The translations under genes and the position numbers were made by a program. The notes under the pieces are model-generated. The model saw only the letters and a list, made by a program, of their open reading frames with translations. It did not search any database and was not told where the DNA came from. Positions 11,107 to 27,079 of a DNA stretch of 36,831 bases are shown here, piece after piece (position 1 is the first letter of the stretch; the number at the start of each line of letters is the position of its first letter). Source of the DNA: Promethearchaeota archaeon (GTDB lineage: Archaea > Asgardarchaeota > Hermodarchaeia > Hermodarchaeales > Hermodarchaeaceae); assembly GCA_048939245.1 (NCBI GenBank), contig JBHLPR010000021.1, positions 1 through 36,831 of the forward strand, in the 5' to 3' direction.

Positions 11107-13425
11107 ATGGGTATCTTTTCCACTTTTCTCAGCTTACACTGGTATGAACAAGTTGCAATTTCTTTAGTAATCGTTGCCGCCATTATCAGCCTGATTTATG
11201 CCGTCTGGCTCCGCCGCGATGTCCTCAAACACGACAAAGGCACCACCAAGATGCAAGAAGTGTGGAACGCTATCAAAGATGGAGCCAACGCTTACCTCCG
11301 TAAACAGCTCCGAACAATCCTCCCCATTATTGCCTTCCTCACTATCGTTCTCTTCTTCACCGTCTATATCGTCCCTCCCAGTCTTGAAGCCCTCGAAGTA
11401 TTTCCACCTAGTGAAGGCTATTCTTACCAGCAAGTTCAGCTCATCATCGCCACCGGACGTGCTATCGCCTTCGTCATGGGCGCATTAAGCTCACTCGCTG
11501 TTGGACAACTAGGAATGCGGATTGCCATCGAATCCAATATCCGTGTTGCATCCGCCTCTGGACGAAGCTATCGTGAAGCCCTCAAAATTGCTTATCATGG
11601 TGGCACCTTCACCGGCATGCTCACAGACGGCCTTGGACTCCTTGGGGGCACCATAATCTTCATCGCCTTCGGCGTCTCCGCGCCTGATGCCCTCCTCGGC
11701 TTCGGATTTGGTGGAACCCTCCTTGCTCTCTTCATGCGAATCGGTGGAGGAATATACACCAAAGCTGCAGATGTCGGCGCTGACCTCGTTGGCAAGGTTG
11801 AAGCCGGCCTCCCTGAAGATGACCCCCGCAACGCGGCCGTCATCGCCGACCTCGTTGGTGATAATGTCGGAGATTGTGCGGGGATGGCTGCTGATATCTT
11901 CGAATCCTATGAAGTCACCATTGTCTCCGCCCTAATACTCGGTGTTGCCCTCTACGTTGTTACCGGACATATCTTCTGGGTCGTCTTTCCACTCGTAGTC
12001 CGCGCTATCGGCGTCATTAGCAGCATCATCGGCACTTTCATGGTTGCGGTCTGGAGAACCGAAAAAGCCGAAAAAGCCATGTTCTACAGCTACGAGGTAA
12101 GCAGCGCGTTTACCATCATCGTCTCCTGTATCTTCTCCTATTTCTATACAGGCGATATTCGCCTTGGCATCCTCGTTGCTGTTGGCGTTCTTCTCGCCGT
12201 CAGCTTCAATCCACTCACCAACTACTTTACAAGCCATCGCCATCGCCCCGTCGAAGAAATTGTCGAACAAGCCAGTGGTGGACCCGCTACCATCGTTCTC
12301 AGCGGCATTAGCACAGGCTACGAGGCCGCTGTCTGGATCCTCCTCGTTATCGTCGCCACTTTCATCGCTGCCTTTCTCATTGCTCCCGAATTTGTCCTCT
12401 TCGGCATCGCACTCATTGGTATCGGAATGCTCTCGCATACAGGAAATAATGTGGCGATGGACAGTTATGGACCGATTGCCGATAATGCCGGTGGAATTGC
12501 CGAGCTAGTCGATATGCCACAGGATTCTCGGAAGATTTTGGCTGATTTGGATGCGGTTGGTAATACGACCAAGGCGATTACGAAGAATGTGGCGATTGCT
12601 TCTGCAGTAATTGCAGCAAGTGCTTTGTTTTATAGTTTCGTGGTGGATGTAGCACGGGCAGCTGTTGCTGCGGGAATACCCAATCCATTAGCGCTGGGGA
12701 TTCGAATTGATAATCCGCTAGTGTTGTCTGGATTGCTGATTGGTGCTGCGCTACCTTGGTTATTCTCAGCATTAGCGATTCGTGCAGTGAGTCGGGCTTC
12801 GTCACAAATCATCGATGAGGTACGTGAGCAGTTCAAAATCCCTGGAGTGATGGAGGGGACGGTGAAGCCGCATTATGACCGTGTGGTGTCCATTACTACA
12901 GCTGCTGCTCAGAAAGAACTCATCAGTTTAACTATTCTCTCGGTGATTACTCCAATCGTGATTGGGCTCTTATTGCAGGTTGAAGCCTTGGGTGGATTCC
13001 TTTCAGGGCTTATTGCTTCCGGGTTACTCCTTGCGGTCTATATGTCGGTTGCGGGTGGCGCTTGGGATAATGCGAAGAAGTATATTGAAAATGAGGCGTG
13101 TGTGCCCGAGGAAGGAACTGGGAAAGGTTCGGAGCGCCATAAGGCAGCAGTGTGTGGGGATACAATTGGTGATCCGTTAAAAGACACTGCTGGTCCTGCG
13201 TTGAATCCGATGATTAAAGTTGTCAATCTCATCAGCTTAATCGCTGCGCCAATCCTTATCGTGTATCGGTTTTATAACCCAGGTTGGCCACCAATTCCAG
13301 ATGTTCTACTATGGAATTTGATTATTGGCATCGTTGTCATCATCTTGGTTGCACTGTTGGTGTGGGCTTTCCGTCAAAGTCGTCGCTCCATCCCACCATT
13401 AGGGCAATGGGAGAGTAGCGATTAG
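11107..13425 (+). CDS. hppA: Membrane-bound proton-translocating pyrophosphatase (K+-independent signature)
   Basis: GGGIYTKAADVGADLVGKVE, EDDPRN, DNVGDCAGMAADIFESY, DSYGPIADNAGG, DAVGNTTKA, GGAWDNAKK, GDTIGDPLKDTAGP. Confidence 0.96.
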   Translation: MGIFSTFLSLHWYEQVAISLVIVAAIISLIYAVWLRRDVLKHDKGTTKMQEVWNAIKDGANAYLRKQLRTILPIIAFLTIVLFFTVYIVPPSLEALEVFPPSEGYSYQQVQLIIATGRAIAFVMGALSSLAVGQLGMRIAIESNIRVASASGRSYREALKIAYHGGTFTGMLTDGLGLLGGTIIFIAFGVSAPDALLGFGFGGTLLALFMRIGGGIYTKAADVGADLVGKVEAGLPEDDPRNAAVIADLVGDNVGDCAGMAADIFESYEVTIVSALILGVALYVVTGHIFWVVFPLVVRAIGVISSIIGTFMVAVWRTEKAEKAMFYSYEVSSAFTIIVSCIFSYFYTGDIRLGILVAVGVLLAVSFNPLTNYFTSHRHRPVEEIVEQASGGPATIVLSGISTGYEAAVWILLVIVATFIAAFLIAPEFVLFGIALIGIGMLSHTGNNVAMDSYGPIADNAGGIAELVDMPQDSRKILADLDAVGNTTKAITKNVAIASAVIAASALFYSFVVDVARAAVAAGIPNPLALGIRIDNPLVLSGLLIGAALPWLFSALAIRAVSRASSQIIDEVREQFKIPGVMEGTVKPHYDRVVSITTAAAQKELISLTILSVITPIVIGLLLQVEALGGFLSGLIASGLLLAVYMSVAGGAWDNAKKYIENEACVPEEGTGKGSERHKAAVCGDTIGDPLKDTAGPALNPMIKVVNLISLIAAPILIVYRFYNPGWPPIPDVLLWNLIIGIVVIILVALLVWAFRQSRRSIPPLGQWESSD

Positions 13426-13871: not shown

Positions 13872-14036
13872 CTGTAGTAACTAGAAAGGTGCTAGACCAA
13901 TCCTCAAATGGAAATTGCAACGGTAAAATATAAAGATATATCTTCCGGCTTTTAAGGCTAGGATTGTCAGCACGAGCTACACACTTTTAAGCGGGGTTCA
14001 TAACTAGTCGCCTCACCAAATTCAAGGCTGATATTC

Positions 14037-15311
14037 ATGGTCGATTTTGCCCTTTCGAAACGTGAACAGGAACTTCTTGACACTGCTATGGCCTTTTCCA
14101 AGAAGTGGATTGTGCCTTATGCCCGGGAACTCGAAGAAGCGGATGAGTTTCCTTGGGAACTCGCTCAGAAGGCTTTTGATGTGGGGCTCATGAACTCTCA
14201 TATCCCCAAAGAATATGGTGGACCCGCGCACTCGATGGTCGAAGAAACTCTCATCGGAGAAGGCATTGGTTACGGCGATGGCGGAATTGCCACCACCATC
14301 TTAGCCAATAACTTGGCACTCACGCCTCTTCTGATTACTGCGACTCCTGAGCAAATGAAGAAATATATTAAACCGTTCGCCACAGGGAAGAAACCTCAAT
14401 TTGCTTCCTTTTGTCTCACCGAACGTGAAGCTGGATCTGATGCTGCAGCGGTGAAAACCACGGCCACTAAAGATGGAGATGAGTGGGTTATCAATGGACG
14501 CAAATGCTTCAGCACCAATGGGCATGTCGCAAAATATCTGAGTGTATTCACAACTGTAGATCCCTCGTTGGGTTACAAGGGAATGGCTTTGCACATGGTG
14601 GAAAAAGACCTACCCGGCGTCGAGGTCGTCATGCTGGAAGACAAGCTTGGGCAACGAGCGTCCTTTCAAGCAGAAATTGAATTCAAGGATGTCCGTATTC
14701 CCGGTGATTGTCTCTTTGGCGAACTCGGTAAGGGCTTTAAATATGCTATGCAAACTCTTGACCGCACCCGTGCTGCCATCGCCGCCCTCGGTGTCGGTAT
14801 CGCCCAACGCGCCGTTGATGAAGCGGCGATTTTTGCTAACCATCGCAAGCAGTTTGGCAAACCAATCGGGGCATACCAGGGCATCAACTTTATGATTGCT
14901 GAAATGGAAGCCCGGGCTATGCACGCCCGGTGGGCAACGCGATATTCAGCGTGGCTTGTTGATCAGGGGCAAAGAAATACTAAGGAGTCGAGTTGTGCCA
15001 AATTCTTTGCAACCGATGCGGCTATGCAGAATACCTTAGATTGTATCCAAATTATGGGCGGTTATGGGTATTCCAAGGAATATCCAGCTGAACAGATGAT
15101 GCGTGGTGCGAAGCTCACTCAAATCTATGAAGGAACAAACGAGATTCAACGCTGGGTGGCGGGACAAGCCGTCTTGAAGGAGGCAAGAGTAACCGAACTG
15201 GATACCGGCTTTCGGCTCACGTTTTCGGGAAATGATTATCCGGATCCTTGGGGACCTCGTGAAGGTAAAGTGCCTGACTTATGGGGCAAGAAGAAATTAA
15301 AATCGAAATGA
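14037..15311 (+). CDS. Acyl-CoA dehydrogenase
   Basis: FCLTEREAGSD, WVINGRKCFSTNG, KLGQR, RKQFGKPIG, QIMGGYGYSKEYP, IYEGTNEIQR. Confidence 0.95.
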   Translation: MVDFALSKREQELLDTAMAFSKKWIVPYARELEEADEFPWELAQKAFDVGLMNSHIPKEYGGPAHSMVEETLIGEGIGYGDGGIATTILANNLALTPLLITATPEQMKKYIKPFATGKKPQFASFCLTEREAGSDAAAVKTTATKDGDEWVINGRKCFSTNGHVAKYLSVFTTVDPSLGYKGMALHMVEKDLPGVEVVMLEDKLGQRASFQAEIEFKDVRIPGDCLFGELGKGFKYAMQTLDRTRAAIAALGVGIAQRAVDEAAIFANHRKQFGKPIGAYQGINFMIAEMEARAMHARWATRYSAWLVDQGQRNTKESSCAKFFATDAAMQNTLDCIQIMGGYGYSKEYPAEQMMRGAKLTQIYEGTNEIQRWVAGQAVLKEARVTELDTGFRLTFSGNDYPDPWGPREGKVPDLWGKKKLKSK

Positions 15312-15427
15312 GAACCTCGATTCCAATTAACGTCGATTCTCCCTCTAATTAAAATAAAAAGATGGAGCCGACATCCACAATTTCTGGTGTCGACTCGATT
15401 AGAAGCTCTGCGGTTAGGGGGTGTTTC

Positions 15428-16393
15428 TTACTCCTTCTTCCTTCGACGTTCCTGCTGTACGGGAGCTGGTTGATTGGCACCAACCAGACCTGCAAGCCCC
15501 ATGATTTCGCCTCTAACCATATCCATGGGGATAGCAAAGACGATGGTATTACTTTGGTCGAAGCTGATATCCTCGAGGCTAGAAAGGGTTCGTAGGTAAA
15601 GTGCTTGTGTGCTCATCTTTTGGACCGCTTCTTCGAGGTTTTGAGCAGCTATGAGTTCACCTTCACTTTTAATGATGACGGCTCGACGTTCTCGTTCTGC
15701 TTCAGCTTGGCGGGCGATGACACGTTTCATGTCCGCCGGCAGTTCGATATTTTGCAGATTGACGCTGATGATATCTACGCCCCAATCCTGCACGTCTTTG
15801 TCAACTTGGAGCTTTATCCGTTCAGCGATTTGATCACGTTTTGCCAGGAGGTCATCGAGTTCCACATTACCAATTACATCGCGCATGGTGGTCTGTGCAT
15901 ATTGCACGGTGCTCAGTCTGACATCTTGGATATTGATGAGGCTTTTTGGTGTGTTGATGACTTTCATGAACACCACGGCATCAATCATGAGGCTGATGTT
16001 GTCTCGGGTCATCAGCTCCTGCTTCATCACATCCAGAGTCTGAATTCTGATATCCTGTCGGAGGAATCTTTCTACTGCAGGCCATTTGAAGAAGATTCCA
16101 GGTCCAACCAATCGGACGAATTTTCCGAAGCGCAAGACTATAGCTTCTTGCCATTGCTTGTTGATGGCAATGGTTGCAGGAACCATTATTAAGAATAGCA
16201 CTGCGAAAAATCCAAAGACGAAGGGGAAAACGATAGCGATGAAGCCGAGCATTGGTCCTAGAATTGGTATCGCGAATATTGCTAGAATGATAAATAGTAT
16301 TCCAAGGAATAAGAATGTAAATAACGGAAGCGGGGAGCCTCTATATTCATACATTCGTCGTTCTTCTTTGTCAGTAAGGGGGTCTTCTCCCAT
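15428..16393 (-). CDS. SPFH/band-7 (stomatin-like) membrane protein
   Basis: N-terminal TM hairpin, VLRFGKF..GPG, TRDNISLMIDAV, AQTTMRDVIG, RQAEAERERRA. Confidence 0.92.
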   Translation of the reverse strand: MGEDPLTDKEERRMYEYRGSPLPLFTFLFLGILFIILAIFAIPILGPMLGFIAIVFPFVFGFFAVLFLIMVPATIAINKQWQEAIVLRFGKFVRLVGPGIFFKWPAVERFLRQDIRIQTLDVMKQELMTRDNISLMIDAVVFMKVINTPKSLINIQDVRLSTVQYAQTTMRDVIGNVELDDLLAKRDQIAERIKLQVDKDVQDWGVDIISVNLQNIELPADMKRVIARQAEAERERRAVIIKSEGELIAAQNLEEAVQKMSTQALYLRTLSSLEDISFDQSNTIVFAIPMDMVRGEIMGLAGLVGANQPAPVQQERRRKKE

Positions 16394-16690
16394 GTTTTTT
16401 CACCATTGATAACCTATAACGCTCAATTGCTACTCGCGAATCTATGATTTAATTCCATGATTGGATAACAATTGACTACGTTATGGGCTTGAGGAATTAT
16501 TCTGTAATGGGACTATACGTTAATGAGCTAAATAAGCGTCATCTATGACGGTTCACTTGTAAGGTGTAGAATCCCACGCCAGGTTTGAATATCCCTCGTA
16601 CTAGACAGCACGAGTTCAGGCTTTTAAAATTAATGAGATTCTGCATAATCGTAGAAAGATGCGACGGGCTCCGCTTCATGCTTGGGGTGA

Positions 16691-16871
16691 TTAAAACAAT
16701 TGGTTAAAGATCAGCATAAAGAAGCCAATAATTGAAAAAAACGCTGTAAATACACCCCCTATCCACACAGCTGCAAATGACCCTAGACTGAAATTAATTA
16801 GTGTTACTGCTGCACTAAGACTTCCAAGAAAAACAAGCTCTTGCCAATTAAATGTGCCTCTCCAGTTTCAT
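16691..16871 (-). pseudogene. Frameshifted small membrane-protein gene
   Basis: 58 hydrophobic sense codons (NWRGTFNWQELVFLGSLSAAVTLINFSLGSFAAVWIGGVFTAFFSIIGFFMLIFNQLF*). The ATG at 16869-16871 is one base out of frame. Confidence 0.35.
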
Positions 16872-16924
16872 ACTCTTCACATCGATGCCTTTAGAGCTCA
16901 TCCTATTTTGGTAGAGCTTTCTTG

Positions 16925-16952
16925 TTCTGGAAAATGCTATTATGACACTTTT
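16925..16952 (+). repeat. dif-like direct repeat, copy 1 (TTCTGGAAAATGCTATTATGACACTTTT)
   Basis: 25/28 identical to 17813-17840. Confidence 0.7.
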
Positions 16953-17083
16953 GGGTCGGCGGACCCAACACATGCCGACATCGAACTGAGCAGAGACTAC
17001 TACCCATCATTTACAACATGCACGTGCTATTCACAAAGGCACTGCAAAGAATCTAGCTGTTCTAAACCGTAGATTCATAATTC

Positions 17084-17761
17084 ATGAAGGAAACACGTTA
17101 TTCGCAGGTTTGTATTTTGAAACTTGAGCCGGATAAAATTAAGACTGGAAACAGACAGCAACGCACAGCTTTTGCTAAAAAGATACCAACATGGATTTTC
17201 CTCATAATCCTTAGCACGATTATTCTATGCTACAACTGCAGCACAGCATTCTTAGCAAACCTCACATATCTCCCCCCAACTTTGTATAACCGAGTATACG
17301 ATTGCATGACCCTTGAAGGAGCAGGGGCTGCAGTCCTTGTTGGGATGTTCATCCTTTACCCCCCACAACTTTTCATGGCAACCATCCGGGGTCTTTTCCT
17401 GGGGGGAGTAGAGGGTGCCCTCTGTGGAATACTCGTAGCAATCTACTGCAGTTCAACCCGGCGACAGTTCCCCCTCCTCGGAGCCGTCGTGGGCAGCATC
17501 AGTGGAATGACCCTTGGCACCACCATCCTTCCCCTTTCTATGCGACTCAGCCTCACCACCTCTGCTACCCACTTCTTTGACCTCTATGCACTCGGAGGCA
17601 TCCACACCATTGAGATTGGCTGCCAGTACGGTGCCTATTCCCTTGCCCTCCTCTACACCAGCTACCTACCAATCCTCTTTCTCCTCAGCCTCATCGCCAT
17701 TGTTGGCACCGTACTCCTCCGCTTCATTGCAAATGCCATCAGCCACGTGGCCACGGACTAA
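17084..17761 (+). CDS. Hypothetical membrane protein lying between repeat copies 1 and 2
   Basis: 225-aa ORF with about 5 hydrophobic Gly-rich helices and a strongly C-rich 3' half. Confidence 0.7.
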   Translation: MKETRYSQVCILKLEPDKIKTGNRQQRTAFAKKIPTWIFLIILSTIILCYNCSTAFLANLTYLPPTLYNRVYDCMTLEGAGAAVLVGMFILYPPQLFMATIRGLFLGGVEGALCGILVAIYCSSTRRQFPLLGAVVGSISGMTLGTTILPLSMRLSLTTSATHFFDLYALGGIHTIEIGCQYGAYSLALLYTSYLPILFLLSLIAIVGTVLLRFIANAISHVATD

Positions 17762-17812
17762 AAGAGTCAAGAACCACCCACAAGCAAGCCCTAATTGATA
17801 ACAGTTCGTTTT

Positions 17813-17846
17813 TTCTGGATAAAGATATTATGACACTTTTTGCATG
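17813..17846 (+). repeat. dif-like direct repeat, copy 2 (TTCTGGATAAAGATATTATGACACTTTTTGCATG)
   Basis: Matches copy 1 over 28 bp and copy 3 over TATTnTGACACTTTT(T)GCATG. Confidence 0.7.
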
Positions 17847-18111
17847 GCGCAACTAGCACGGGTCTGCTATTAGATAAGGGGTAGAGGAGGCTCTGTATTC
17901 CCTAGCGAGGTTGCGTATGGTCGGTAGTATCGGGAGAATGTGAAGTTGGAGGGTCGGTAGTTGTTTCAAAATACACTTGTAAAGCTTCTTTTTTTAGATC
18001 AGTTTGAGAGGGTATTGCACTTTTCATCATCTTCATGGGCGCCAGATTGTCCGTAGGGATCGCTAGCGGTTACTATTGCCAAAGAGAAGAATAGAAAATT
18101 ACCGAGGATTT

Positions 18112-18504
18112 CTAAGGTCCTTCTATCTGGATGTTAAGCAGTTCAAGTTGTCTTATAAGACGTTGGGGTAAGTCGGGAGTAATGAGTTTTTCTTGGTCAT
18201 AGTCTTCAATTTCTTTAATACCACGAGAATATAAGTAAAGTCCGAGGTCAACACCAATCCCATTGATTTCTCTAGCAATAGGAAGGTTTTCTTCGGTTGC
18301 TTTTTCTAAGAATTGCGAATCTAAAGCCTTAGCAATTGATTTAGAGATTTCCAATTCATCTGTTGGGCGTCTGCATAACTTCGATATCTCTTTAGTATCA
18401 ATACTTCTCAAGTCTTCCAATGTAGTTACACCATGTTTTGCGAGTATGCTAGCTGTCGATTGGCCAATTCCCCAAATCTTTTTGAAATTTTTACGAGACT
18501 CGAT
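18112..18504 (-). CDS. Helix-hairpin-helix (HhH) DNA-binding domain protein
   Basis: Frame is open upstream of TTG 18420 as far as 18510. Two HhH-like motifs, IWGIGQSTASILAKHGV and INGIGVDLGLYLYSRGI. Start codon uncertain (ATC 18504 proposed). Confidence 0.65.
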   Translation of the reverse strand: MESRKNFKKIWGIGQSTASILAKHGVTTLEDLRSIDTKEISKLCRRPTDELEISKSIAKALDSQFLEKATEENLPIAREINGIGVDLGLYLYSRGIKEIEDYDQEKLITPDLPQRLIRQLELLNIQIEGP

Positions 18505-18635
18505 TTTCGTTCACTTCCTTTTGATAAGGATTTGTAAACACAAAAATCAGTGAAGAATAATTAGATGAATCTTCACCATTCCTAATCCTCAGCTAATTTA
18601 GTAATTTTCTTCAAGAAAAATCTTTTGGGTCTTTC

Positions 18636-18663
18636 ATGATTCTTCACCATTACGAAGAATCAT
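18636..18663. promoter_or_regulatory. Perfect inverted repeat ATGATTCTTC-N8-GAAGAATCAT
   Basis: Seen directly, intergenic and upstream of the HhH gene. Function is inferred. Confidence 0.35.
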
Positions 18664-18751
18664 AATGGTCCTTATCGCAATGGTGTATGCTTCGAGATTT
18701 TTTTTAAAAAAATGAATCGAACTGATAAGTTTGACAAGGTTGAAATGTTTT

Positions 18752-19171
18752 TCAAGAACTTTCTTCCTTAGTATGAATCTTCGTTAATCCGAAGAATCCT
18801 CCGAGAATAGCTAGGATTGCACCTAGAAACAAGATTACACACCCTACACAAACAAAGAACACTAGAACGGCAGGAATAGAAAAAATAATAATCTTGACAC
18901 TGCCGATTCGTGATTTTCTTTTGATTTGGACTGCTATAGCGATTATCACTAAACTCCCACATGTTAACGCCACAGCCATAGTTACAATCATTCCGTTCAA
19001 TAAATTAATCAAAATTTGGGCTAAATCAGGAGGCAGTAATGGTAATAAGGCTAATCCAACAAAGAATAATCTAGCAACGAAAAACTGTGATACAAACATT
19101 ATAATGCCTCCGATAACTGAAAGTATTCTAGAAGCGATTTGCAATGAGTCACTTCTCAACTTTTTTCTCAC
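18752..19171 (-). CDS. Cationic multi-TM membrane protein (candidate immunity protein)
   Basis: 139 aa, 3-4 TM helices, K/R clusters. 4-nt overlap with the upstream gene. Confidence 0.65.
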   Translation of the reverse strand: MRKKLRSDSLQIASRILSVIGGIIMFVSQFFVARLFFVGLALLPLLPPDLAQILINLLNGMIVTMAVALTCGSLVIIAIAVQIKRKSRIGSVKIIIFSIPAVLVFFVCVGCVILFLGAILAILGGFFGLTKIHTKEESS

Positions 19172-19764
19172 TCCCCTTTATCATTTTTTGAATAAAATGC
19201 TATAACTAAAATTACAATTATGATAACACTTCCTAAAATTAAACTGGATCCGAGAAAAGGCACATAATGTACGCCTGTAGTTGGTTCGAAATTAATGGAA
19301 AAGAAATGGTGAGGACCCAGTCTGCTGTTGTGGTTAGAAGATGCATCTGTAGCAGAGAACTGAATATAATAGGCATCACCATCTTGCACAAATCCTATGT
19401 TATATGAAAAAGTCACGTTATCTGTTGATGCCATAGTACGATTTGTGGTAACGAACTGGTAGTTTTCATCATTTAACATGCGTACTCTGCAATAAACCAC
19501 AGCAATACCAGACTCGTCTCGAATAATTGCCCAAGCAGTTACGTTATCTCCAGCTTCCGGAACCTCTGGAGTAATCCAAGAATTTTCAAATATTGGAGGT
19601 TCTAAATCTCCGTTATTACCCCTCTCACTTATATAACAACTTTCTATCGAATAATTTAGTTGAGATGACTTGATAACACTGAGTAGTAGAATTATGTATA
19701 ATATAATAACTAAAGTGTTGAGAACCCGTATTCTTCTATTCCAATGAAGTATCATACCTCCCAC
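19168..19764 (-). CDS. Membrane-anchored protein with extracellular Ig-like domain
   Basis: N-terminal TM helix, beta-rich DLEPP...GDNVT...DESGI...YYIQFSATD domain, C-terminal TM helix. Confidence 0.7.
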   Translation of the reverse strand: MGGMILHWNRRIRVLNTLVIILYIILLLSVIKSSQLNYSIESCYISERGNNGDLEPPIFENSWITPEVPEAGDNVTAWAIIRDESGIAVVYCRVRMLNDENYQFVTTNRTMASTDNVTFSYNIGFVQDGDAYYIQFSATDASSNHNSRLGPHHFFSINFEPTTGVHYVPFLGSSLILGSVIIIVILVIAFYSKNDKGE

Positions 19765-19781
19765 CTAAATCAACCTTTTTA

Positions 19782-19800
19782 CTAACCAGGTTAGCTAACC
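19782..19800. promoter_or_regulatory. Overlapping palindromes CTAACC-A-GGTTAG-CTAACC (operator-like)
   Basis: Lies between a TATA-like TTTTAATATAT (minus strand, about 19810-19820) and the 19764 start. Confidence 0.35.
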
Positions 19801-19816
19801 AATTGTTGGATATATT

Positions 19817-19846
19817 AAAAAAGGAGCCTATAAAAATAGGCTCCTT
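19817..19846 (-). terminator. Hairpin terminator after the peptide-precursor gene
   Basis: Perfect 11-bp stem AAGGAGCCTAT/ATAGGCTCCTT with a 4-nt loop, running into a U-tract on the minus strand, 9 nt after the stop at 19856. Confidence 0.75.
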
Positions 19847-19855
19847 CTTATTTTT

Positions 19856-20203
19856 TTAGATTAGTAATGGTAGTTCAATGAATATATCGTATACTGTGAG
19901 TAATATTAGCAAACACTCTGGAGCGAGTACACCAGTCAAGAGACAAGCACCCACGATGATGAGTAAAATAGCACCATCAATGCCTGAAACTATTAGAACC
20001 CAATTAAACCATTCCTCGAATGACATCTGGCCAGTAAGAACATATTGCATATATGTTAGGATGATCCATCGACTACCATGGGTATTTTGACCTTGAATGG
20101 TTTGATCCTGGGGAGTTGACTTGTAAGTTGCTGCAATCATAGGGGTGATGATTAACCCAACAATGGTAATTACTGTAAGTAACCGATAGTGTCCCCTTTT
20201 CAT
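19856..20203 (-). CDS. Secreted hydrophobic peptide; putative bacteriocin/archaeocin-like precursor
   Basis: Perfect GGAGGTGA RBS (20208-20215). Signal-peptide-like residues 1-25, polar spacer, hydrophobic core of about 70 aa. Divergent from SpoIIM and Yip1 genes. Confidence 0.6.
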   Translation of the reverse strand: MKRGHYRLLTVITIVGLIITPMIAATYKSTPQDQTIQGQNTHGSRWIILTYMQYVLTGQMSFEEWFNWVLIVSGIDGAILLIIVGACLLTGVLAPECLLILLTVYDIFIELPLLI

Positions 20204-20360
20204 CCATTCACCTCCGATATTTGAATTATTTAATTTATTATTTGATTTTATTTAAAGACTTTCATCCCTGAATCTAACGATTAATTTAATTTCTATCCTT
20301 TTTTTAGGAAACTTTCTTAACATTATAAATGCACATAACATCAGAGGAGAAGGAAGTCTC

Positions 20361-21023
20361 TTGACAAATTATAGAAATAATTGTCTCGATACAATCTTTG
20401 TAGAAAACCATACACAACTATTATCGAATAGAAATAAACAAGTAACCAATAATAAAGAAGTTGACACACCTAAACCTTCTTCAGCATTTTGGATTTTATC
20501 ATTTTTAATTGTAGTTGTTGCTTATATTAGTGGAATTATAATTGGGTGGTTTACCCCCCTCCCCTATCTATCCGACAATGAGCCTAATAATTCCTGGTTC
20601 TCTCCCTTATTCCTCTTCTCATACATTTTGAGATCAAATATCACATTCGTTATAATAATTTTAATATTAGGTGTTTTGACATTTGGAGTGGGAATTATCA
20701 TTAATCTTTGGTTACAGGGTTTCATCAACATTTTAGTTATACGTTTAGCCTTACAAGTAGCACCACTCCATATGGTTCTTGTTTCCTTTTTCCCTCATGC
20801 AATAGTCGAAATCACAGCCATTCTTTGGTCTGCTGCAATCGGATTGTATTTACCGCTTCAGCTAATTCGATATCTCTTTGGGTATAGAAGCAGAATTCTA
20901 ATACACAACGAGCCTCGCCAAATAGTTATATCTATTCCGATTATTTTGATCTTGCTTGTAATTGCAGCTTTCATTGAAAGTTTTGTAACACCTCAGCTGA
21001 TGGGGGTATTATCCATTGTCTGA
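20361..21023 (+). CDS. Stage II sporulation protein M (SpoIIM/DUF95) family membrane protein
   Basis: ILRSN, FPHAIVEITA and LLVIAAFIESFVTP family motifs; about 5 TM helices. Confidence 0.88.
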   Translation: MTNYRNNCLDTIFVENHTQLLSNRNKQVTNNKEVDTPKPSSAFWILSFLIVVVAYISGIIIGWFTPLPYLSDNEPNNSWFSPLFLFSYILRSNITFVIIILILGVLTFGVGIIINLWLQGFINILVIRLALQVAPLHMVLVSFFPHAIVEITAILWSAAIGLYLPLQLIRYLFGYRSRILIHNEPRQIVISIPIILILLVIAAFIESFVTPQLMGVLSIV

Positions 21024-21561
21024 TTCACTGAAGTTATTAATTCATCCACTCAATCCACCCAAGAAAATAGTGACGTCTCCAAATCCATTTGTTTCTTTCG
21101 GCACGGTATTGACCACAGGATTCGTTAGCATTCTGATGAATATGCTCACATTAATTTGGCTTGAACCCTGGATTTTTGAGATTCCATTCATTCTATTTCT
21201 TGGAGGCCTTGTTGCTATTTTCTCATATCTCATAGTTTTTTTAATTATTTCTACTATTAGTTATTTAATAGCCAAATCGTTTAATGGAAAAGCTGATTAC
21301 AGAATTCATTTGCTTGCACTCGGATACACTTGGTTTTTTAGAATTCTAGTAGTATTGGCTATTCTAATTGTAAATTTGATTATTCCTACATTTATAATTC
21401 TAATCATATTCATTACGGTATTATTAAAAACAGTATTTTTTATTCCTGCGAGTTCGGTATGTCGGTATGTAAATAATATTAAATGGAAACCTGCATTAAT
21501 TAGTGTTATTCTACCAGATTTAATTTTATTTTTTGGAGGAATTTGGCTTTCGATATTATAA
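21016..21561 (+). CDS. Yip1-domain membrane protein
   Basis: N-terminal LLIHP and YLIAKSFNGKADY...LGY pattern; about 5 TM helices. 8-nt overlap with the SpoIIM gene. Confidence 0.75.
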   Translation: MSDSLKLLIHPLNPPKKIVTSPNPFVSFGTVLTTGFVSILMNMLTLIWLEPWIFEIPFILFLGGLVAIFSYLIVFLIISTISYLIAKSFNGKADYRIHLLALGYTWFFRILVVLAILIVNLIIPTFIILIIFITVLLKTVFFIPASSVCRYVNNIKWKPALISVILPDLILFFGGIWLSIL

Positions 21562-21685
21562 CGAAACCTAATGTTGATAGTATACTTTGATTGAAACCGC
21601 ATTAGAATTTAAAATTAATTTTAAAAAACAATTAAAAGAAAGTTCTAATATGTTCTAAATAGAAAAAACCAGAGAGAATAAATAC

Positions 21686-21913
21686 ATGTCACAGAGAAAA
21701 GCTGGAATAGTAGCAAAAGAAATTAGTCGCTGGTACTTTCTTGGATTTTTCATTTGGATTGCAATAATATTTTTTCTCATTTGTTACGCAGGAGGTTGTG
21801 ACAACATATCTCCAGAATTTACGTTTGCAATTATGTTTCTATTTGGATCGATTGGAATTGGTGCATTGATATTATATTCGGTGCAGGTCCTTAGAAAGAC
21901 CAATAACCAGTAA
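21686..21913 (+). CDS. Small two-TM membrane protein
   Basis: 75 aa, basic termini, two hydrophobic helices. Confidence 0.6.
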   Translation: MSQRKAGIVAKEISRWYFLGFFIWIAIIFFLICYAGGCDNISPEFTFAIMFLFGSIGIGALILYSVQVLRKTNNQ

Positions 21914-22203
21914 AGAACTTTTATAATTCAAGAGTGCCATTCTATTTACCAAAAAATCAAAGGTGAAATGAAGATAAAGGCCAAATTCAAGCCAAATAAA
22001 AATTCACTGTTAACTCGAATGACCCAAAACATGAAACTAGGGAATCTATAAATCTTCTTGGGAGATTTCTCGAAAAATTGAGGAGGCCTTTCTGCCTTCA
22101 CTCTATCTTATTCATTAATTTTATTAATTTGGATTAAGAAAGAATAATTCCCATCACGGTGGTCTTTTACAAACTCCCCGTTATCATCGAATAAAGACTA
22201 CAA

Positions 22204-22482
22204 TTATTCTGAAGACCGTAAGTTTTTTCTAAAAAAATAAAGGAGAGTGACAAAGGCGAAAATGAGGATAACTAAATGAACCGAGAGTGCCAGAATTAAT
22301 TGTTGGAAAAATATGGAATCGGAGGGAAAAATACCAAAGATCTGATTAACGATTAGGAATGTAATAAAGCTGGACAATAAGATTATGGGGGTTAGCGTTA
22401 CAATCAAAGCTATGCTAAGCCCTTTCCGTGATGGCTTTATCTCTGAATCACTACTACTCACAAGCATTTTCACTAATATCAT
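22204..22482 (-). CDS. Small two-TM membrane protein
   Basis: 92 aa, two hydrophobic helices, basic C-terminus. Confidence 0.6.
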   Translation of the reverse strand: MILVKMLVSSSDSEIKPSRKGLSIALIVTLTPIILLSSFITFLIVNQIFGIFPSDSIFFQQLILALSVHLVILIFAFVTLLYFFRKNLRSSE

Positions 22483-22544
22483 AAATTTAATTAACTATTT
22501 AAAAGCTGCTTTCCTATGGTAAAAGACTGGATTGGACAATAGAA

Positions 22545-22778
22545 GTGTGGGAAAAATTACACGAAGATCAAATCCTGCATTTGTTCAATACGACTTATGA
22601 TATTGTCCAAATGCCTGATGTTCGGAGTCGAGATTTTGAAACAGCAATGGTGCTTCATCCTGAGAAGGGATATATTGGCTATCTAATTAAGAAAAATAGT
22701 CGTTTCTTTTTCTTGGATGAATTACGGATTCAAGATGTTTTTCAGGAGTGGTTTGCATCTCTTAGGGAGACTCCGTGA
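22545..22778 (+). CDS. Small hypothetical protein or gene fragment
   Basis: Protein-like 77-aa ORF. Frame extends to 22503 without an ATG/GTG/TTG, so it may be 5'-truncated. Confidence 0.4.
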   Translation: MWEKLHEDQILHLFNTTYDIVQMPDVRSRDFETAMVLHPEKGYIGYLIKKNSRFFFLDELRIQDVFQEWFASLRETP

Positions 22779-22862
22779 AGATATCCAATGATAGAGAATA
22801 AAAAATCTATATTAAGTAAATGCAGGATTTTAGAGATGCGTTCTGCTTCCCATATAAAGTCA

Positions 22863-23295
22863 ATGGAATCCAAAAAACATTTGGATTAAAATTATAATCG
22901 AGTTATTTCAAGCTTTATTGAGCTTTATGAATCCATATTCACGAGATTGGGGAACTCTTTGTCTCATAGTAGGAATCATCGTCATTCCATTTGCTTTCAT
23001 CTTTTAGTATCCCGCTTTGTTATTAGCATTCATCACCCTGTTAAACAGCAATATTGAACAAGCGTTGGGATTTTGGCAGAACCTTCTGGAGGTCCAGATA
23101 GCTCTTATCACAATGTTGGGGATACTTTTAGGATTTTCAGGAGTAATTGTATTCTATCAGATGCGAAGGTATGATCAATTCCTTTTCTTGGCCTTGAATC
23201 AACAAAGGGCATCTCAGGTTGTACTTGATTTAGGAGCCCGTGAGCTACTTGAAGGAATGTTTGAAGGAGAAACATTTCATCTTCCAGAAAAATAG
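22863..23295 (+). pseudogene. Disrupted membrane-protein gene
   Basis: Hydrophobic frame 22858-23295 interrupted by TAG at 23005-23007. ATG 22863 joins this frame only if one A is removed from the A6 run. Confidence 0.45.
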
Positions 23296-23817
23296 ATCTA
23301 TCTTTTTGAGATGCCTACCAACTAGATGGCTACACAAAAGATAGAAATCTCCTCCGGTTTGCCATAGATGTGTAGATGGACTTCTGCTCAGACCACTTGA
23401 TTAATGCCGATTTGAACCACTTCCCTTTAGGCAAACCTTAGCTGCTAAATCAAAGTTGTTTGGTTACATCTTTGAAAGTGAAGATAGCCGTCCGAGAGTC
23501 CCGGGTACTATTTTCGGTCCTGATTCATTTCATTTTTGAAAACGGTATGATATTAAGTGAGAACGTCTTCATTGAGCGAGTTTTTATTGAATTTGTGGAA
23601 GCCCTTGTCCATGTAGGGATAGATCTGGTTCCGATAATCTCACGTGAGGTTACGGATCGTCTTGAATTAGTAGCATTTGAACCTGTTAGAGGTTGATTTA
23701 ATCTCGACGATTTTAAGATTAGGGGAGCTCGGAATTTGAATAAACTACTCATAAACTGGTAATTGATAAAGGGCTAATTGAAGTTTTTAATAAGGAAAGT
23801 GAAGCATACTCTGATGA

Positions 23818-24069
23818 GTTGCCAGTTGTTGCTATCATCTCCCTCATGAATTGTCAACCGTTGTTGAGGCGATTTGTGTTCTGGCAACCGATACATTAAC
23901 CGATGATATAGTTAAGGGATATATCCGATATCTAACTATTACCAGAAGGCGATTAGCACCTATTGGCGCCTCTTCTATTGATGGTAACTGAGGAGATAGA
24001 GAATATTATAAGCTCGCCTTCTCTAAGGGTTGTCAACTGGAACCGTGGCGAACTTGTCCTGACAACCGA
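23818..24069. repeat. Degenerate intergenic repeat array (RTTRYCA ... TGRYAACYGA, three units)
   Basis: Half-sites at 23818, 23850, 23881, 23938, 23981, 24029 and 24059. Confidence 0.4.
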
Positions 24070-24133
24070 AGTGCTAAGCGAATGCAGCACCTGTGCAGCA
24101 ACTAAAATTCGCATGAAATAAGAGGAATCGGGC

Positions 24134-24174
24134 TATTCTGACACTTTTGCATGTTATTGTGACACTTTTTGGCA
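24134..24174 (+). repeat. dif-like repeat, copies 3 and 4 (tandem right halves)
   Basis: TATTCTGACACTTTTGCATG (24134-24153) and TATTGTGACACTTTTTGGCA (24155-24174). Confidence 0.65.
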
Positions 24175-24214
24175 GAATACAATGGTTATTGCTTAATCTG
24201 GATAAATATTCAGT

Positions 24215-25216
24215 TCATGCTTCCGAATCATCGATTTGTAAATATGGATACTCTGGATCTAATTGTAGGACCCGTTGAAAACACTCTTGGGCTTCTTGTG
24301 GGCGTTTAAGCTCGATGAGGATACGTCCTCGGAGGTATATTCCATTGACATGGTCAGGGCTAGTTTTGAGGAGTCGATCGACAATATCGAGGGCTTCCTC
24401 AAACCGCTTCAAGTCACGTGCCAGAGTATTTCCAAGATTATAAAGTGTAAGTGCGTCATGTGGATTGATCATAGCTGCCTGCAAATATGCTTCAACTGCT
24501 TCATCATATTTTTGCAGCATGCCCAATCCAACACCTTTGTCATACCACGCTCGACTATTTTGGGGTTCAAGACTGATGACGCGCTGAAAGATACGTAACG
24601 CTTCCTCAACCCGTCCCATTCTCCCAAGGAGTTCACCCATATCGAGCCAGGCATCAATATGCTCTGGGGCGAGTTTAGTAGCTTTCTTGTAACAGGTTAG
24701 TGCGTCCTTAAGTTGTGTTAGCTGTTCGTGAAGGACACCCCGATTATACCAGGCTCGGGCATCTCCAGGGTTTACGTTAAGTGTTTCAATGAAACAATCA
24801 AGAGCTTCCTCATATCGTTTGAGTTCCGAAAGAATAACACCCCGGTTATACCATGCATTCGCATAATCCAGACGATTTTTCGTCCGGGTTCGTGTGGCTC
24901 TAATAAAGCTCTGTAATGCTTCTTCAGTTCGATTCAATTCTTGATATGCTGCACCTAAATTGTTCCACGCTTCGATATAATTAGAATCAAGTTCAGTTGC
25001 ATGTTTGTAACAATCGAGCGCTTCATTGATGCGTCCAAGCTCATCAAGAGCAAGTCCTTTGTTAAACCAAACAGCTGCATCCCGTGGACGGAGTTCTGCT
25101 GTGATTGAAAACGCCTCTAAAGCTTCCTCTAATTGACCTTTTTCAGCCAAATCTACACCTAAATTAAACCAATCTTCAGCGGTGAAATTTGGTTTACTCC
25201 GTTTCTTCTTTGACAA
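24215..25216 (-). CDS. Tetratricopeptide-repeat protein
   Basis: About 8-9 tandem 34-aa repeats of the form AWYNRG..L..L.RYEEAL..F..AL.L.P. Confidence 0.93.
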   Translation of the reverse strand: MSKKKRSKPNFTAEDWFNLGVDLAEKGQLEEALEAFSITAELRPRDAAVWFNKGLALDELGRINEALDCYKHATELDSNYIEAWNNLGAAYQELNRTEEALQSFIRATRTRTKNRLDYANAWYNRGVILSELKRYEEALDCFIETLNVNPGDARAWYNRGVLHEQLTQLKDALTCYKKATKLAPEHIDAWLDMGELLGRMGRVEEALRIFQRVISLEPQNSRAWYDKGVGLGMLQKYDEAVEAYLQAAMINPHDALTLYNLGNTLARDLKRFEEALDIVDRLLKTSPDHVNGIYLRGRILIELKRPQEAQECFQRVLQLDPEYPYLQIDDSEA

Positions 25217-25220
25217 ATAC

Positions 25221-25586
25221 TCACCCTGGTGCTTGAAGTATTTGCATCATCAGCTGGCCTAAGGGCACAGATTCGTGAGCGGCACCAATAATAATGAGCT
25301 CCCATTTTTTTATCAAGTCTCGGAATGACGCTTGTCCGGTGAAGAGATTCATCAGTGTTTTCGTCGATGCTTTGTATATGACTTCAGGGGAGGGATAGCT
25401 TCCTGAATGTAATTCCATCGTTCCTTGTTTTTGCAATACGATATGAAAGATCTCCCCATCAGTTTCCACTTGGAGCACTTTTCCTTGGTACGGACCTACC
25501 CAGTTTCGGATGAAAACTCGGTGTTCAGGTGTTTTGTTAACCTTAGCAATTAATCCTTGAAAAATCTGAATTAACGGGTTTGTCAT
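25221..25586 (-). CDS. SCP2 (sterol-carrier/lipid-binding)-like small protein
   Basis: FHIVLQKQGTMELHSG...PEVIYKAS..TLMNLFTG......IKKWELIIIG pattern resembles the SCP2 fold. Confidence 0.6.
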   Translation of the reverse strand: MTNPLIQIFQGLIAKVNKTPEHRVFIRNWVGPYQGKVLQVETDGEIFHIVLQKQGTMELHSGSYPSPEVIYKASTKTLMNLFTGQASFRDLIKKWELIIIGAAHESVPLGQLMMQILQAPG

Positions 25587-25603
25587 TTATCTCACCTAGC
25601 AAG

Positions 25604-25873
25604 TTATTTTTTCTTTATCCAGGCCTGCACCGCTTCCATTACAGCATCGTTTACGTGCCGTGCTCGAATATCTCCCTTTCTTTCTCGCACCTTTACCAGA
25701 AAGTTCTGGTATAACTCGTGATCCATCAAGACCACCATGCGACCTTTGCGATTATTCACCAAGGCTTGGGTGATGTACTTATTTTCACGAATCATTAGGG
25801 TTTCAATATCTCGTAACTGTAGGTGTGGATATCCGGGCCATTGTCCATCTGACGCTTTCTTATATCGTGGCAT
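25604..25873 (-). CDS. Small protein with C-terminal ribbon-helix-helix-like segment
   Basis: MVVLMDHELYQNF...VNDAVMEAVQAWI; tight operon spacing. Confidence 0.6.
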   Translation of the reverse strand: MPRYKKASDGQWPGYPHLQLRDIETLMIRENKYITQALVNNRKGRMVVLMDHELYQNFLVKVRERKGDIRARHVNDAVMEAVQAWIKKK

Positions 25874-25886
25874 CTGTTATTCCTCC

Positions 25887-26153
25887 TTAATTCGAATCTT
25901 TTTTTCCTTCATCGATTGATTGGTCTCCAGGAATTTTAACCAATCCCGGTTGAAAAGGCCATTCCACCACATACCGCATTCCTTTTTTTCCTCCCCGATT
26001 TCCTCGTCGCCAAGTGCCCACGTAGATGCCACTTCCAAATACTCGGATATATTCTGATAAGATCAAGATTGCTGCTACTTCCGGGCTGATATTTGCTTCC
26101 CTCGCTTTTTCCTCGAGTCCCTTTTGAATATCCTCAGGTATTTGTAATTCCAT
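25887..26153 (-). CDS. Small protein with N-terminal ribbon-helix-helix-like segment
   Basis: MELQIPEDIQKGLEEKAREANISPEVAAILILSEYI; tight operon spacing. Confidence 0.62.
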   Translation of the reverse strand: MELQIPEDIQKGLEEKAREANISPEVAAILILSEYIRVFGSGIYVGTWRRGNRGGKKGMRYVVEWPFQPGLVKIPGDQSIDEGKKDSN

Positions 26154-26159
26154 CTTTCT

Positions 26160-26960
26160 TCACCTTTTCTTCTTGCGCTGCTTCTTTTTGGTTTGTGTGC
26201 TTTTCTGATGTCGAAATGCTAATCGTTGGTAAGGAGTTCCCCATCGCTCTGCATAAAAACTACCTTCCAATGGCCACCGTGAAGGACCAAGCATACGCGG
26301 CTTTTCTGGAACCCCTATACAGAAAGCCGCAATTGGTGTCCAAGTGCGTGGAATCCCTATTTTATCACAGATAAATTCGACATGGCGCTTATCTGCGAAG
26401 GCTACGGCTTGATAGGCACAGGCGTATCCCATCGAGTGAGCAACCAGCCACATATTCATAACCCCCATACCTATGACTACACTCCCACAGAGTTCATTGG
26501 GATACCTCCCCGTGCTATCATGCCAGGTTTCAGAAGCGCAACAAACAATAACAGCATCTGCCTTTTCGGGGTACCGAAATAATGATCCATCTCGCATTTC
26601 CTCATATATGCCTGGGCGGCTGGCATCAGGCACATACCATAATCGACCTTGTGTCGATTCATACGGAAAATTACCAAAAACATATCGTGCGGCTTCTTGG
26701 CTGATATCGGCAATGATGCGTTTCATTTCTTCATCCTCCCGGATGAGTATATAACGCCACATCTGCATATTCTCTGGAGATGGCGCATAGCGTGCCGCAT
26801 CTAAGATTAGTTCTAAATCCTGGTCAGGAATTCGTTCCCCCGTCATATGCCGCATACTTCGACGCATTCGAATCAATTCGACGAGTTGCCCCGTCGATTG
26901 GGTGATGTTAGGCATGTCCACAGTATTACCGGATCGGTTTTTCTGTTTAGATTCAGTCAT
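26160..26960 (-). CDS. Nitroreductase family flavoprotein
   Basis: RRSMR, ILDAARYAPSPENMQMWRYILI, NMWLVAHSMGY. Confidence 0.9.
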   Translation of the reverse strand: MTESKQKNRSGNTVDMPNITQSTGQLVELIRMRRSMRHMTGERIPDQDLELILDAARYAPSPENMQMWRYILIREDEEMKRIIADISQEAARYVFGNFPYESTQGRLWYVPDASRPGIYEEMRDGSLFRYPEKADAVIVCCASETWHDSTGRYPNELCGSVVIGMGVMNMWLVAHSMGYACAYQAVAFADKRHVEFICDKIGIPRTWTPIAAFCIGVPEKPRMLGPSRWPLEGSFYAERWGTPYQRLAFRHQKSTQTKKKQRKKKR

Positions 26961-27079
26961 GGAATTCTCACCATTCTATCTTCTATCGGATGGTATTCTA
27001 GTGATATTAAATGGTATTATCGCTGTTCGAATACAGCTTCTTACATTGAAAGTTAGTGCAAATTATTGATAAAATGCAG

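Follow-up and report, generated by a model that had tools for sequence, protein, structure and literature searches.

The 36,831-nt stretch analyzed here (the window) is the entire contig C93 (JBHLPR010000021.1) of a 2.52-Mb metagenome-assembled genome (MAG), 88% complete, of an archaeon of the genus Hermodarchaeum. Between a minus-strand SPFH/Band 7 gene (15428–16393) and a minus-strand TPR gene (24215–25216), which form the core flanks of the locus, the window was confirmed to hold two stacked gene cassettes of 888 and 6,383 bp, bounded by a short site that opens with the hexamer TCTGGA. A sequence-only reading of this DNA had predicted units of about 0.89 and 6.3 kb, set apart by four direct copies of a dif-like site; the accessory region is indeed partitioned into discrete cassettes, but by two full 27-bp sites and two half-sites. 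The GC content drops from ∼0.46 to 0.31–0.39 between 18 and 24 kb of the window, in which neither a tRNA nor an Rfam match was found and, as the sequence-only reading had also noted, no recombinase is encoded.

The first cassette (16926–17813, plus strand, 888 bp, GC content 0.49) begins with a type-A left-end site (16926–16952, plus strand, 50 bits) that is composed of TCTGGA (16926–16931), 6 variable bases, and a half-site (16938–16952). The type-A extension that follows (16953–16985, plus strand) contains a small GGGTC/GACCC palindrome that is common to type-A copies in relatives, and its fold as single-stranded DNA was no better than those of shuffled sequences. The cargo gene (17084–17761, plus strand) encodes a 225-aa multi-pass membrane protein that belongs to no Pfam family; homologues with 68–73% DNA identity are present in G013:C72 and G012:C1, without adjoining sites. 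This cassette runs directly into the next hexamer, without a canonical right end.

The second cassette (17814–24196, plus strand, 6,383 bp from hexamer to hexamer, GC content 0.355) starts with a type-B left-end site (17814–17840, plus strand, 46 bits) and a type-B extension (17841–17905, plus strand) that carries a degenerate second conserved box (AGGGGCT..ATTTCCC); positions 17801–17887 of the window match eight relatives. Its low-GC cargo (18000–23289, GC content 0.34) consists of small membrane-protein open reading frames (ORFs) and is mostly unique to this genome. The cargo is followed by a conserved right-end-proximal module (23283–24133, plus strand) that starts at an inverted hexamer, TCCAGA (23283–23288). 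Alignments of the module with G006:C48 gave identities of 91% (928 bp) and 96% (732 bp), and at least 8 other places hold partial copies. It contains no convincing ORF and has no Pfam or Rfam match, nor do its small ORFs match any Pfam family at E ≤ 1; searches of plasmids and phages with the 921-bp right-end module also found nothing. The cassette closes with two half-sites (24134–24148 and 24155–24169, plus strand) that are 21 bp apart and a tail (24170–24196, plus strand) that reads GGCAGAATACAATGGTTATTG plus 5–6 bases. The terminal TCTGGA (24197–24202, plus strand), 12 bp before the TPR stop codon, is the joint of the array with the core genome. Thus, the repeats at 24134 and 24155, which had been taken for repeated halves of the site, are not truncated sites but half-sites of a separate right end of ∼65 bp, which ends in a third TCTGGA; a left-half-like string had been reported near 24198.

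The strings quoted in the sequence-only reading are where it had placed them, and its two 28-mers (16925–16952 and 17813–17840) match at 25 of 28 positions. This 28-mer pattern was found twice in the window compared with 0.00 copies expected from 100 shuffles, whereas the count of its 15-mer half, TATTATGACACTTTT, at three or fewer mismatches (4 found versus 1.74 expected) is weak by itself. With at most one mismatch, the 15-mer occurs in the entire 2.52-Mb genome only at window positions 16938, 17826, 24134, and 24155, always on the plus strand. A weight matrix built from 32 distinct left-end copies in relatives found no further full site in the window beyond those at 16926 and 17814.

The conserved unit of the left end is the 27-bp sequence TCTGGA-N6-TATTATGACACTTTT. 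Across the 32 left ends of relatives, the block of high information content opens abruptly with the first T of TCTGGA and extends through TTTT, the hexamer itself is nearly invariant (29–32 of the 32), and the sequences to its left all differ. Downstream, the left end continues as one of a few types, with type A carrying the small palindrome and types B, C, and D sharing a second box ∼35 nt further in. In 19 aligned right ends, a half-site (often two, 21 bp apart) is followed by a 26-bp tail, conserved in all 19, and then by TCTGGA; conservation halts right after this hexamer in 19 of 19 cases, beyond which there are 17 different flanks. A variant right-end tail also occurs. The conserved right end spans ∼65 bp and closes with the same six bases with which the left end opens. 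DNA folds of both ends, on both strands, revealed no conserved hairpin (z −0.1 to −2.0), and, because neither end folds as a single-stranded hairpin, attC-type integron chemistry and IS200-type chemistry are unlikely.

We fetched ∼50 site-region places from same-genus genomes, and each of the three site regions of the window matches many of them. All of the genomes compared are MAGs that are 72–91% complete, in which repeats break assemblies and several right ends sit at contig ends. Among 185,579 species genomes, the exact 27-bp pattern was found in 16 stretches, all of them in Hermodarchaeum-type MAGs. Allowing one mismatch, the 15-mer is present in 0–12 copies per genome in 15 genomes of the genus (0–2 for a reversed-pattern control), whereas four sister-genus genomes together contain only 2 one-mismatch hits, both in one genome, which does not exceed the control level. 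Neither the 27-bp pattern nor the right-end pattern has a match in IMG/VR. Copies are clustered and co-oriented within contigs, and the gene that follows a left end is co-oriented with it in 17 cases and opposite in 14, at distances of −10 to 991 bp. A complete unit consists of a left end, 0.7 to 8 kb of cargo in either orientation, and a right end with 1–2 more 15-bp boxes in the same orientation as that of the left end, the 26-bp tail, and TCTGGA.

In same-genus genomes without the array, the SPFH and TPR sides of the locus are adjacent (blastn of window positions 14000–27000 against 40 relatives), an arrangement that the sequence-only reading had suggested looking for. They are separated by 37 bp in G014:C5, by 53 bp in G010, and by 330–380 bp in G003, G004, G001, and G008; in these last four genomes, the gap holds a small membrane-protein gene of ∼65 aa that is intact there and absent from G014 and G010. 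The window retains a remnant of this two-helix membrane-protein gene (16640–16870, minus strand), frameshifted near its start so that start codon and body are in different frames. Because homology of the window to relatives ends at 16631 (or at the remnant) and restarts at 24226–24231, all of 16926–24202 is extra DNA. A decayed right-end-like stretch lies between the ∼65-aa gene and the TPR gene in G003 and G004, and for this reason the intergenic spot seems, from its sequence, to be an old landing place.

Two comparisons of empty and occupied loci place the point of exchange. In the first, G005:C270 reads right end-TCTGGA-flank, and the shared locus in G006:C34, the flanks of which are 89–92% identical, has at this point an extra 1.93-kb unit that opens with a type-B left end and is flanked by TCTGGA at either side; the adjoining bases outside this hexamer place the exchange in the hexamer itself. 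In the second, an 8.3-kb element of G004:C48 comprises a type-B left end, an ABC transporter, an AAA ATPase, and a right end, and its flanks are split only by TCTGAA, TTTGAA, and TCTGAA in G001:C8, G003:C5, and contig C52 of the genome studied here, respectively. The end architecture of the second cassette in the window is that of this 8.3-kb element with its empty alleles. No site was present at the empty loci of relatives in any locus scanned, and gene-content breakpoints in relatives coincide exactly with the sites, as had been proposed. In both comparisons, the exchange maps to TCTGGA at the left edge of the 28-mer and not to its central variable bases. The cases show that a whole unit comes or goes as one block with the hexamer as its precise boundary; the hexamer occurs once in an empty allele and on both sides of an insert. 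They also show that the hexamer of a resident unit serves as the entry point for new units, so that tandem arrays are built.

The cassettes are shared among genomes in a manner that is distinct from that of their surroundings. A 670-bp type-A cassette is 92% identical between G004:C111 and G006:C34, where its neighborhoods differ and in genomes that are elsewhere ∼72% identical. A cassette with a LUD-domain gene is found in G011:C33, G009:C51, and G013:C124, each time with different neighbors, and an ABC-transporter cassette is present in four genomes at 91–94% identity. Overall, cassette identity is 91–96% compared with 72–79% for core flanks. These data show that units move between species. 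For an HD-domain gene that starts at the right-end hexamer in G011:C33, no orthologue was found in the genus and no empty allele was obtained. The kinds of cargo include Glu/Leu dehydrogenase-like proteins, LUD proteins, ABC-2 transport, AAA ATPases, membrane proteins, and one TnpB.

Based on these results, we propose, with a probability of roughly 0.6, that the window contains two stacked members of a family of enzyme-less mobile gene cassettes that is restricted to the genus Hermodarchaeum. Movement would occur by conservative site-specific recombination, a mode that fits the data because the 6-bp joint is fixed and is either single or double, the ends are asymmetric and carry a box in the same orientation, and units stack in tandem. 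In the mechanism we envisage, a circle with the junction right end-TCTGGA-left end would recombine with a TCTGGA-like hexamer in the chromosome, including that of a resident unit. The enzyme would act in trans and bind phased direct repeats. In the rebuilt right end-left end junction, the starts of the boxes are 21, 32, and 22 bp apart, or ∼2, 3, and 2 helical turns, and such spacing would suit proteins arrayed along a single face of the helix.

Several observations weigh against this proposal. No enzyme has been tied to the sites, and the intact extra tyrosine recombinases found in the genus have no site within the 2–6 kb fetched around them (none at ≥7 bits). All three empty alleles in the second comparison read TGAA and not TGGA, with TCTGGA at both junctions of the occupied G004 locus; on sequence grounds, such alleles fit target duplication as well as a shared core. 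A 916-bp difference between G011:C33 and G013:C124 joins in a 13-bp half-site and not in the hexamer, and it may be a deletion between repeats. Some units, the first cassette of the window included, are without a canonical right end. The dyad around the hexamer of a right end-left end junction, natural or rebuilt, is weak when scored by eye (5–7 of 11 positions); we gave this 11-6-11 dyad little weight, because the same bases can be read as a fourth degenerate direct repeat. Finally, the genome studied here has only XerA, yet it contains no palindromic site of the XerA type in which TCTGGA is the spacer.

The most likely class of enzyme, as far as gene content can indicate, is a tyrosine recombinase. 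A six-frame search for serine recombinases (PF00239) found none in the 15 genomes of the genus (the control was detected in 12 of 14), Y1 transposases were found in none of five genomes, and IS110-type recombinases were present in two of five genomes, never on site-bearing contigs. Tyrosine recombinases were the only site-specific recombinases found, with Xer in 13 of the 15 genomes and extra ones in several. None was found within the window's cassettes, nor was a recombinase found within most of the others examined. Extra tyrosine recombinases are present in 8 of the 12 genomes with sites and in 0 of the 3 without, a difference that is not significant between genomes that are not independent.

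The most likely candidates, again on sequence criteria, are a family of 350–360 aa with a C-terminal zinc ribbon, the reference copy of which is a 359-aa protein of G011:C24, or the host XerA. In G009:C51, a frameshifted catalytic domain of the G011:C24 type (L032 3735–4138, minus strand) starts 75 bp after a left end, and in G011:C21 a C-terminal recombinase piece (L029 4547–4726, plus strand) lies where the orthologous locus of G006:C51 has a right end. Because sites cover ∼0.1% of a genome, two such contacts would be unlikely to arise by chance. N-terminal pieces of the zinc-ribbon family were also seen in G006:C34 (8599–8847) and G004:C157 (6287–6745). A split integrase of the SSV type was considered and is excluded as a layout, since stop codons within the left end interrupt each of the three frames; in addition, no N-terminal part lies upstream of any right end. 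In the genome studied here, the sole tyrosine recombinase is a 315-aa protein of the Xer type (XerA) on C82 (20497–21444), so that the cassettes of this genome either are moved by XerA or may be stranded.

One rival explanation is that these units are modules similar to IMEX (integrative mobile elements exploiting Xer) or pdif, with the host XerA as the recombinase and dif-like sites as its substrates. XerA is the sole site-specific recombinase found in the genome studied here, the stacks that IMEX form at dif resemble these arrays of co-oriented hybrid sites, and a junction rebuilt from a right end, TCTGGA, and a left end fits an 11-6-11 layout with a left arm that ends in GCATAA. The build of the site argues otherwise. 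Archaeal dif is an 11-6-11 site with near-perfect inverted 11-bp arms that occurs once per chromosome (PMC2958812); when the 28-mer is split in this way, only 3 of 11 arm positions are complementary (5–7 of 11 in the rebuilt junction), so the description of the site as dif-like in build does not hold, and an ATAA-N5-TTAT dyad that had been noted in one copy exists but is trivial. No dif-like palindrome with a TCTGGA spacer was found in this genome, and the best 11-6-11 candidate of a dif search (C16:69627) is kept in only 3 of the 15 genomes. One genome of the genus (G002) has XerA yet has no sites.

Modules of the pdif type are bounded by oppositely oriented sites. Here, several loci per genome carry sites and all of these are co-oriented, so the proposed likeness to pdif fails on both counts. 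Xer-dependent IMEX and pdif modules (PMC5357621, PMC11705084) do resemble the cassettes in being enzyme-less, in relying on a recombinase encoded elsewhere, and in having arrays bounded by short direct sites of ∼28 bp; the cassettes differ in that their site is not a copy of a dif with inverted arms, occurs at many loci, is co-oriented, and exchanges outside the presumed spacer. We consider capture at dif-like sites by XerA doubtful. A half-site look-alike beside the xerA gene of this genome was rejected, as it is not conserved in four relatives.

A second rival is that the cassettes are non-autonomous derivatives of IS607-like or TnpB-type elements, for which a serine transposase supplied in trans would bind direct repeats and exchange strands at the GG in TCTGGA. 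Elements of the IS607 family have no terminal inverted repeats, carry short, phased direct motifs close to each end, terminate in GG, and use GG as their target (PMC6188088). The cassettes share the lack of clear inverted repeats at their ends, direct repeats at both ends phased at 21/32/22 bp, a GG at the joint, minimal target needs, and, in one case, a TnpB. That case is a 2.4-kb unit of G011:C18 (L036 2630–5041) in which a type-A left end and the right-end module enclose a 479-aa TnpB encoded on the opposite strand, with the 3′ end of the TnpB gene facing the left end; it is the only cassette found with TnpB. Yet no serine recombinase or transposase was found in the 15 genomes, TnpB or a trace of it was seen in only 1 of the ∼50 loci collected, and TnpB counts per genome do not track site counts. 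In addition, the three bases to the left of GG and the one to its right are also fixed at junctions, giving six and not two fixed bases, the empty alleles have GA and not GG, the ends match no RNA family, and the cassettes differ further from the IS607 family in their diverse cargo of up to 8 kb and their tandem stacking. The likeness to IS607 therefore holds for the architecture of the ends and not for membership in the family, and we regard a serine-transposase origin as unlikely.

Cut-and-paste transposons with a strict TCTGGA target, a 6-bp target duplication, and an unrecognized transposase would also explain why the hexamer is single in empty alleles and doubled around inserts, as well as why the two junction hexamers in G004 are identical and the empty sites of relatives differ from them by one or two bases. 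This explanation is improbable, since the ends are not inverted repeats and carry the box in the same orientation, a hexamer that is invariant in 29–32 of 32 copies is unusual for a duplication, units without a right end are still bounded by the hexamer, and no transposase recurs in the cargo.

That the repeats are not mobile ends at all but binding sites or promoters of a regulon, repeats encoding Cys-rich peptides (CYxDTF), or cast-off gene tails of a homing endonuclease is very improbable and already largely refuted. Translated in one frame, the boxes give CY(S/C/Y)DTF, and a TAA closes the right end immediately ahead of the hexamer. Upstream, however, this frame stays open over a median of 13.5 codons, which does not exceed the value for another frame, and several copies contain stops. 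Every type-B left end reads TCT GGA TAA, no wobble bias is seen among the substitutions, right ends lie beside unrelated genes at many loci, and sites are absent from the upstream regions of core genes. The genus-restricted, clustered distribution and the mixed orientation and distance of the following gene rule out an ordinary regulator site, in agreement with the sequence-only reading. As descriptions of the site, we rejected a regulator site or promoter, an RNA gene (no Rfam match), and a repeat or gene tail that encodes protein (coding is not consistent in the right end).

Returning to enzyme-less mobile cassettes as the preferred reading, a close functional parallel is with integrons. Archaeal integron arrays and clusters of attC sites lacking integron integrases (CALINs) are enriched in Asgard archaea (Ghaly et al. 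2022, PMC9668308). Like the cassettes of these systems, the units described here are small and recombinase-less, often carry one gene, stand head to tail with co-oriented sites, enter beside a resident site, and are shuffled among relatives; discrete cassettes, a fixed core, and stacking in one direction were all found. An IntI/attI head, attC hairpins, and a promoter platform were not found, and the cassettes further differ from integrons and CALINs in having cargo in both orientations, arrays at several loci, and two different conserved ends. The core shared by integron sites is GTT, whereas here it is TCTGGA.

There is also a likeness to lambda-type attP sites and archaeal integrative elements (PMC8371274), in which a short identical core is present at both junctions and single when the site is empty, and repeated boxes lie in both arms of the rebuilt junction, which here would be bound by protein. 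The cassettes differ from elements of the lambda, SSV, and pNOB8 types in that no integrase gene lies inside those of the window or inside most others and no tRNA serves as target. Aloposons (PMC8813620), which have tRNA targets and giant genes, are unrelated.

Taken further, and tentatively, at somewhat less than even odds, the sites may define a Hermodarchaeum gene-exchange system in which enzyme-less cassettes with asymmetric ends and a TCTGGA core are moved by a trans-acting zinc-ribbon tyrosine recombinase, or by XerA, on phased repeats. Such a system would be previously undescribed in the literature we searched (on aloposons, archaeal integrons, and Xer/dif), and it would play in archaea a role equivalent to that of integrons, with sites and an enzyme unrelated to theirs.

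Eukaryotes have no closer known relatives than the Asgard archaea, whose ways of acquiring genes are still to be explained. The cassettes described here are defined by sequence and carry metabolic, transport, and membrane genes of ordinary kinds from one species to another within a single genus, with joints that are exact to the base. Their sites provide a search key for gene flow in Hermodarchaeum populations and concrete substrates for finding the enzyme. If this enzyme proves to be the host XerA or a new type of recombinase, the known ways of capturing genes would be extended beyond integrons.

Additional copies of the ends were found elsewhere in the genome studied here. The weight matrix identified a third full site on the minus strand of C45 (position 11956, within 11850–12260), at a joint of a variant right end, TCTGGA, and a type-D left end. 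On the plus strand of C74 (32459–33750), degenerate left and right ends that are 1.25 kb apart mark a decayed cassette.

Some minor features of the cassettes and their surroundings were also noted. In the cargo of the second cassette, a SpoIIM/DUF95-type membrane gene (20361–21023) sits amid small hydrophobic ORFs (18752–22482). The right-end module of this cassette, with its inverted TCCAGA at 23283–23288, is bounded by two oppositely oriented copies of the hexamer. Between L027 (G006:C51) and L029 (G011:C21), a cassette joint differs by the inversion of one of its flanks, and L029 has two half-sites head to head; together, the inverted flank and these half-sites suggest, from sequence, an inversion between oppositely oriented half-sites. 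The region 3′ of xerA (C82, L031 2080–2400) has a conserved terminator hairpin, followed by an AT-rich stretch with TTCG..GAAAAT-like motifs, in five species.

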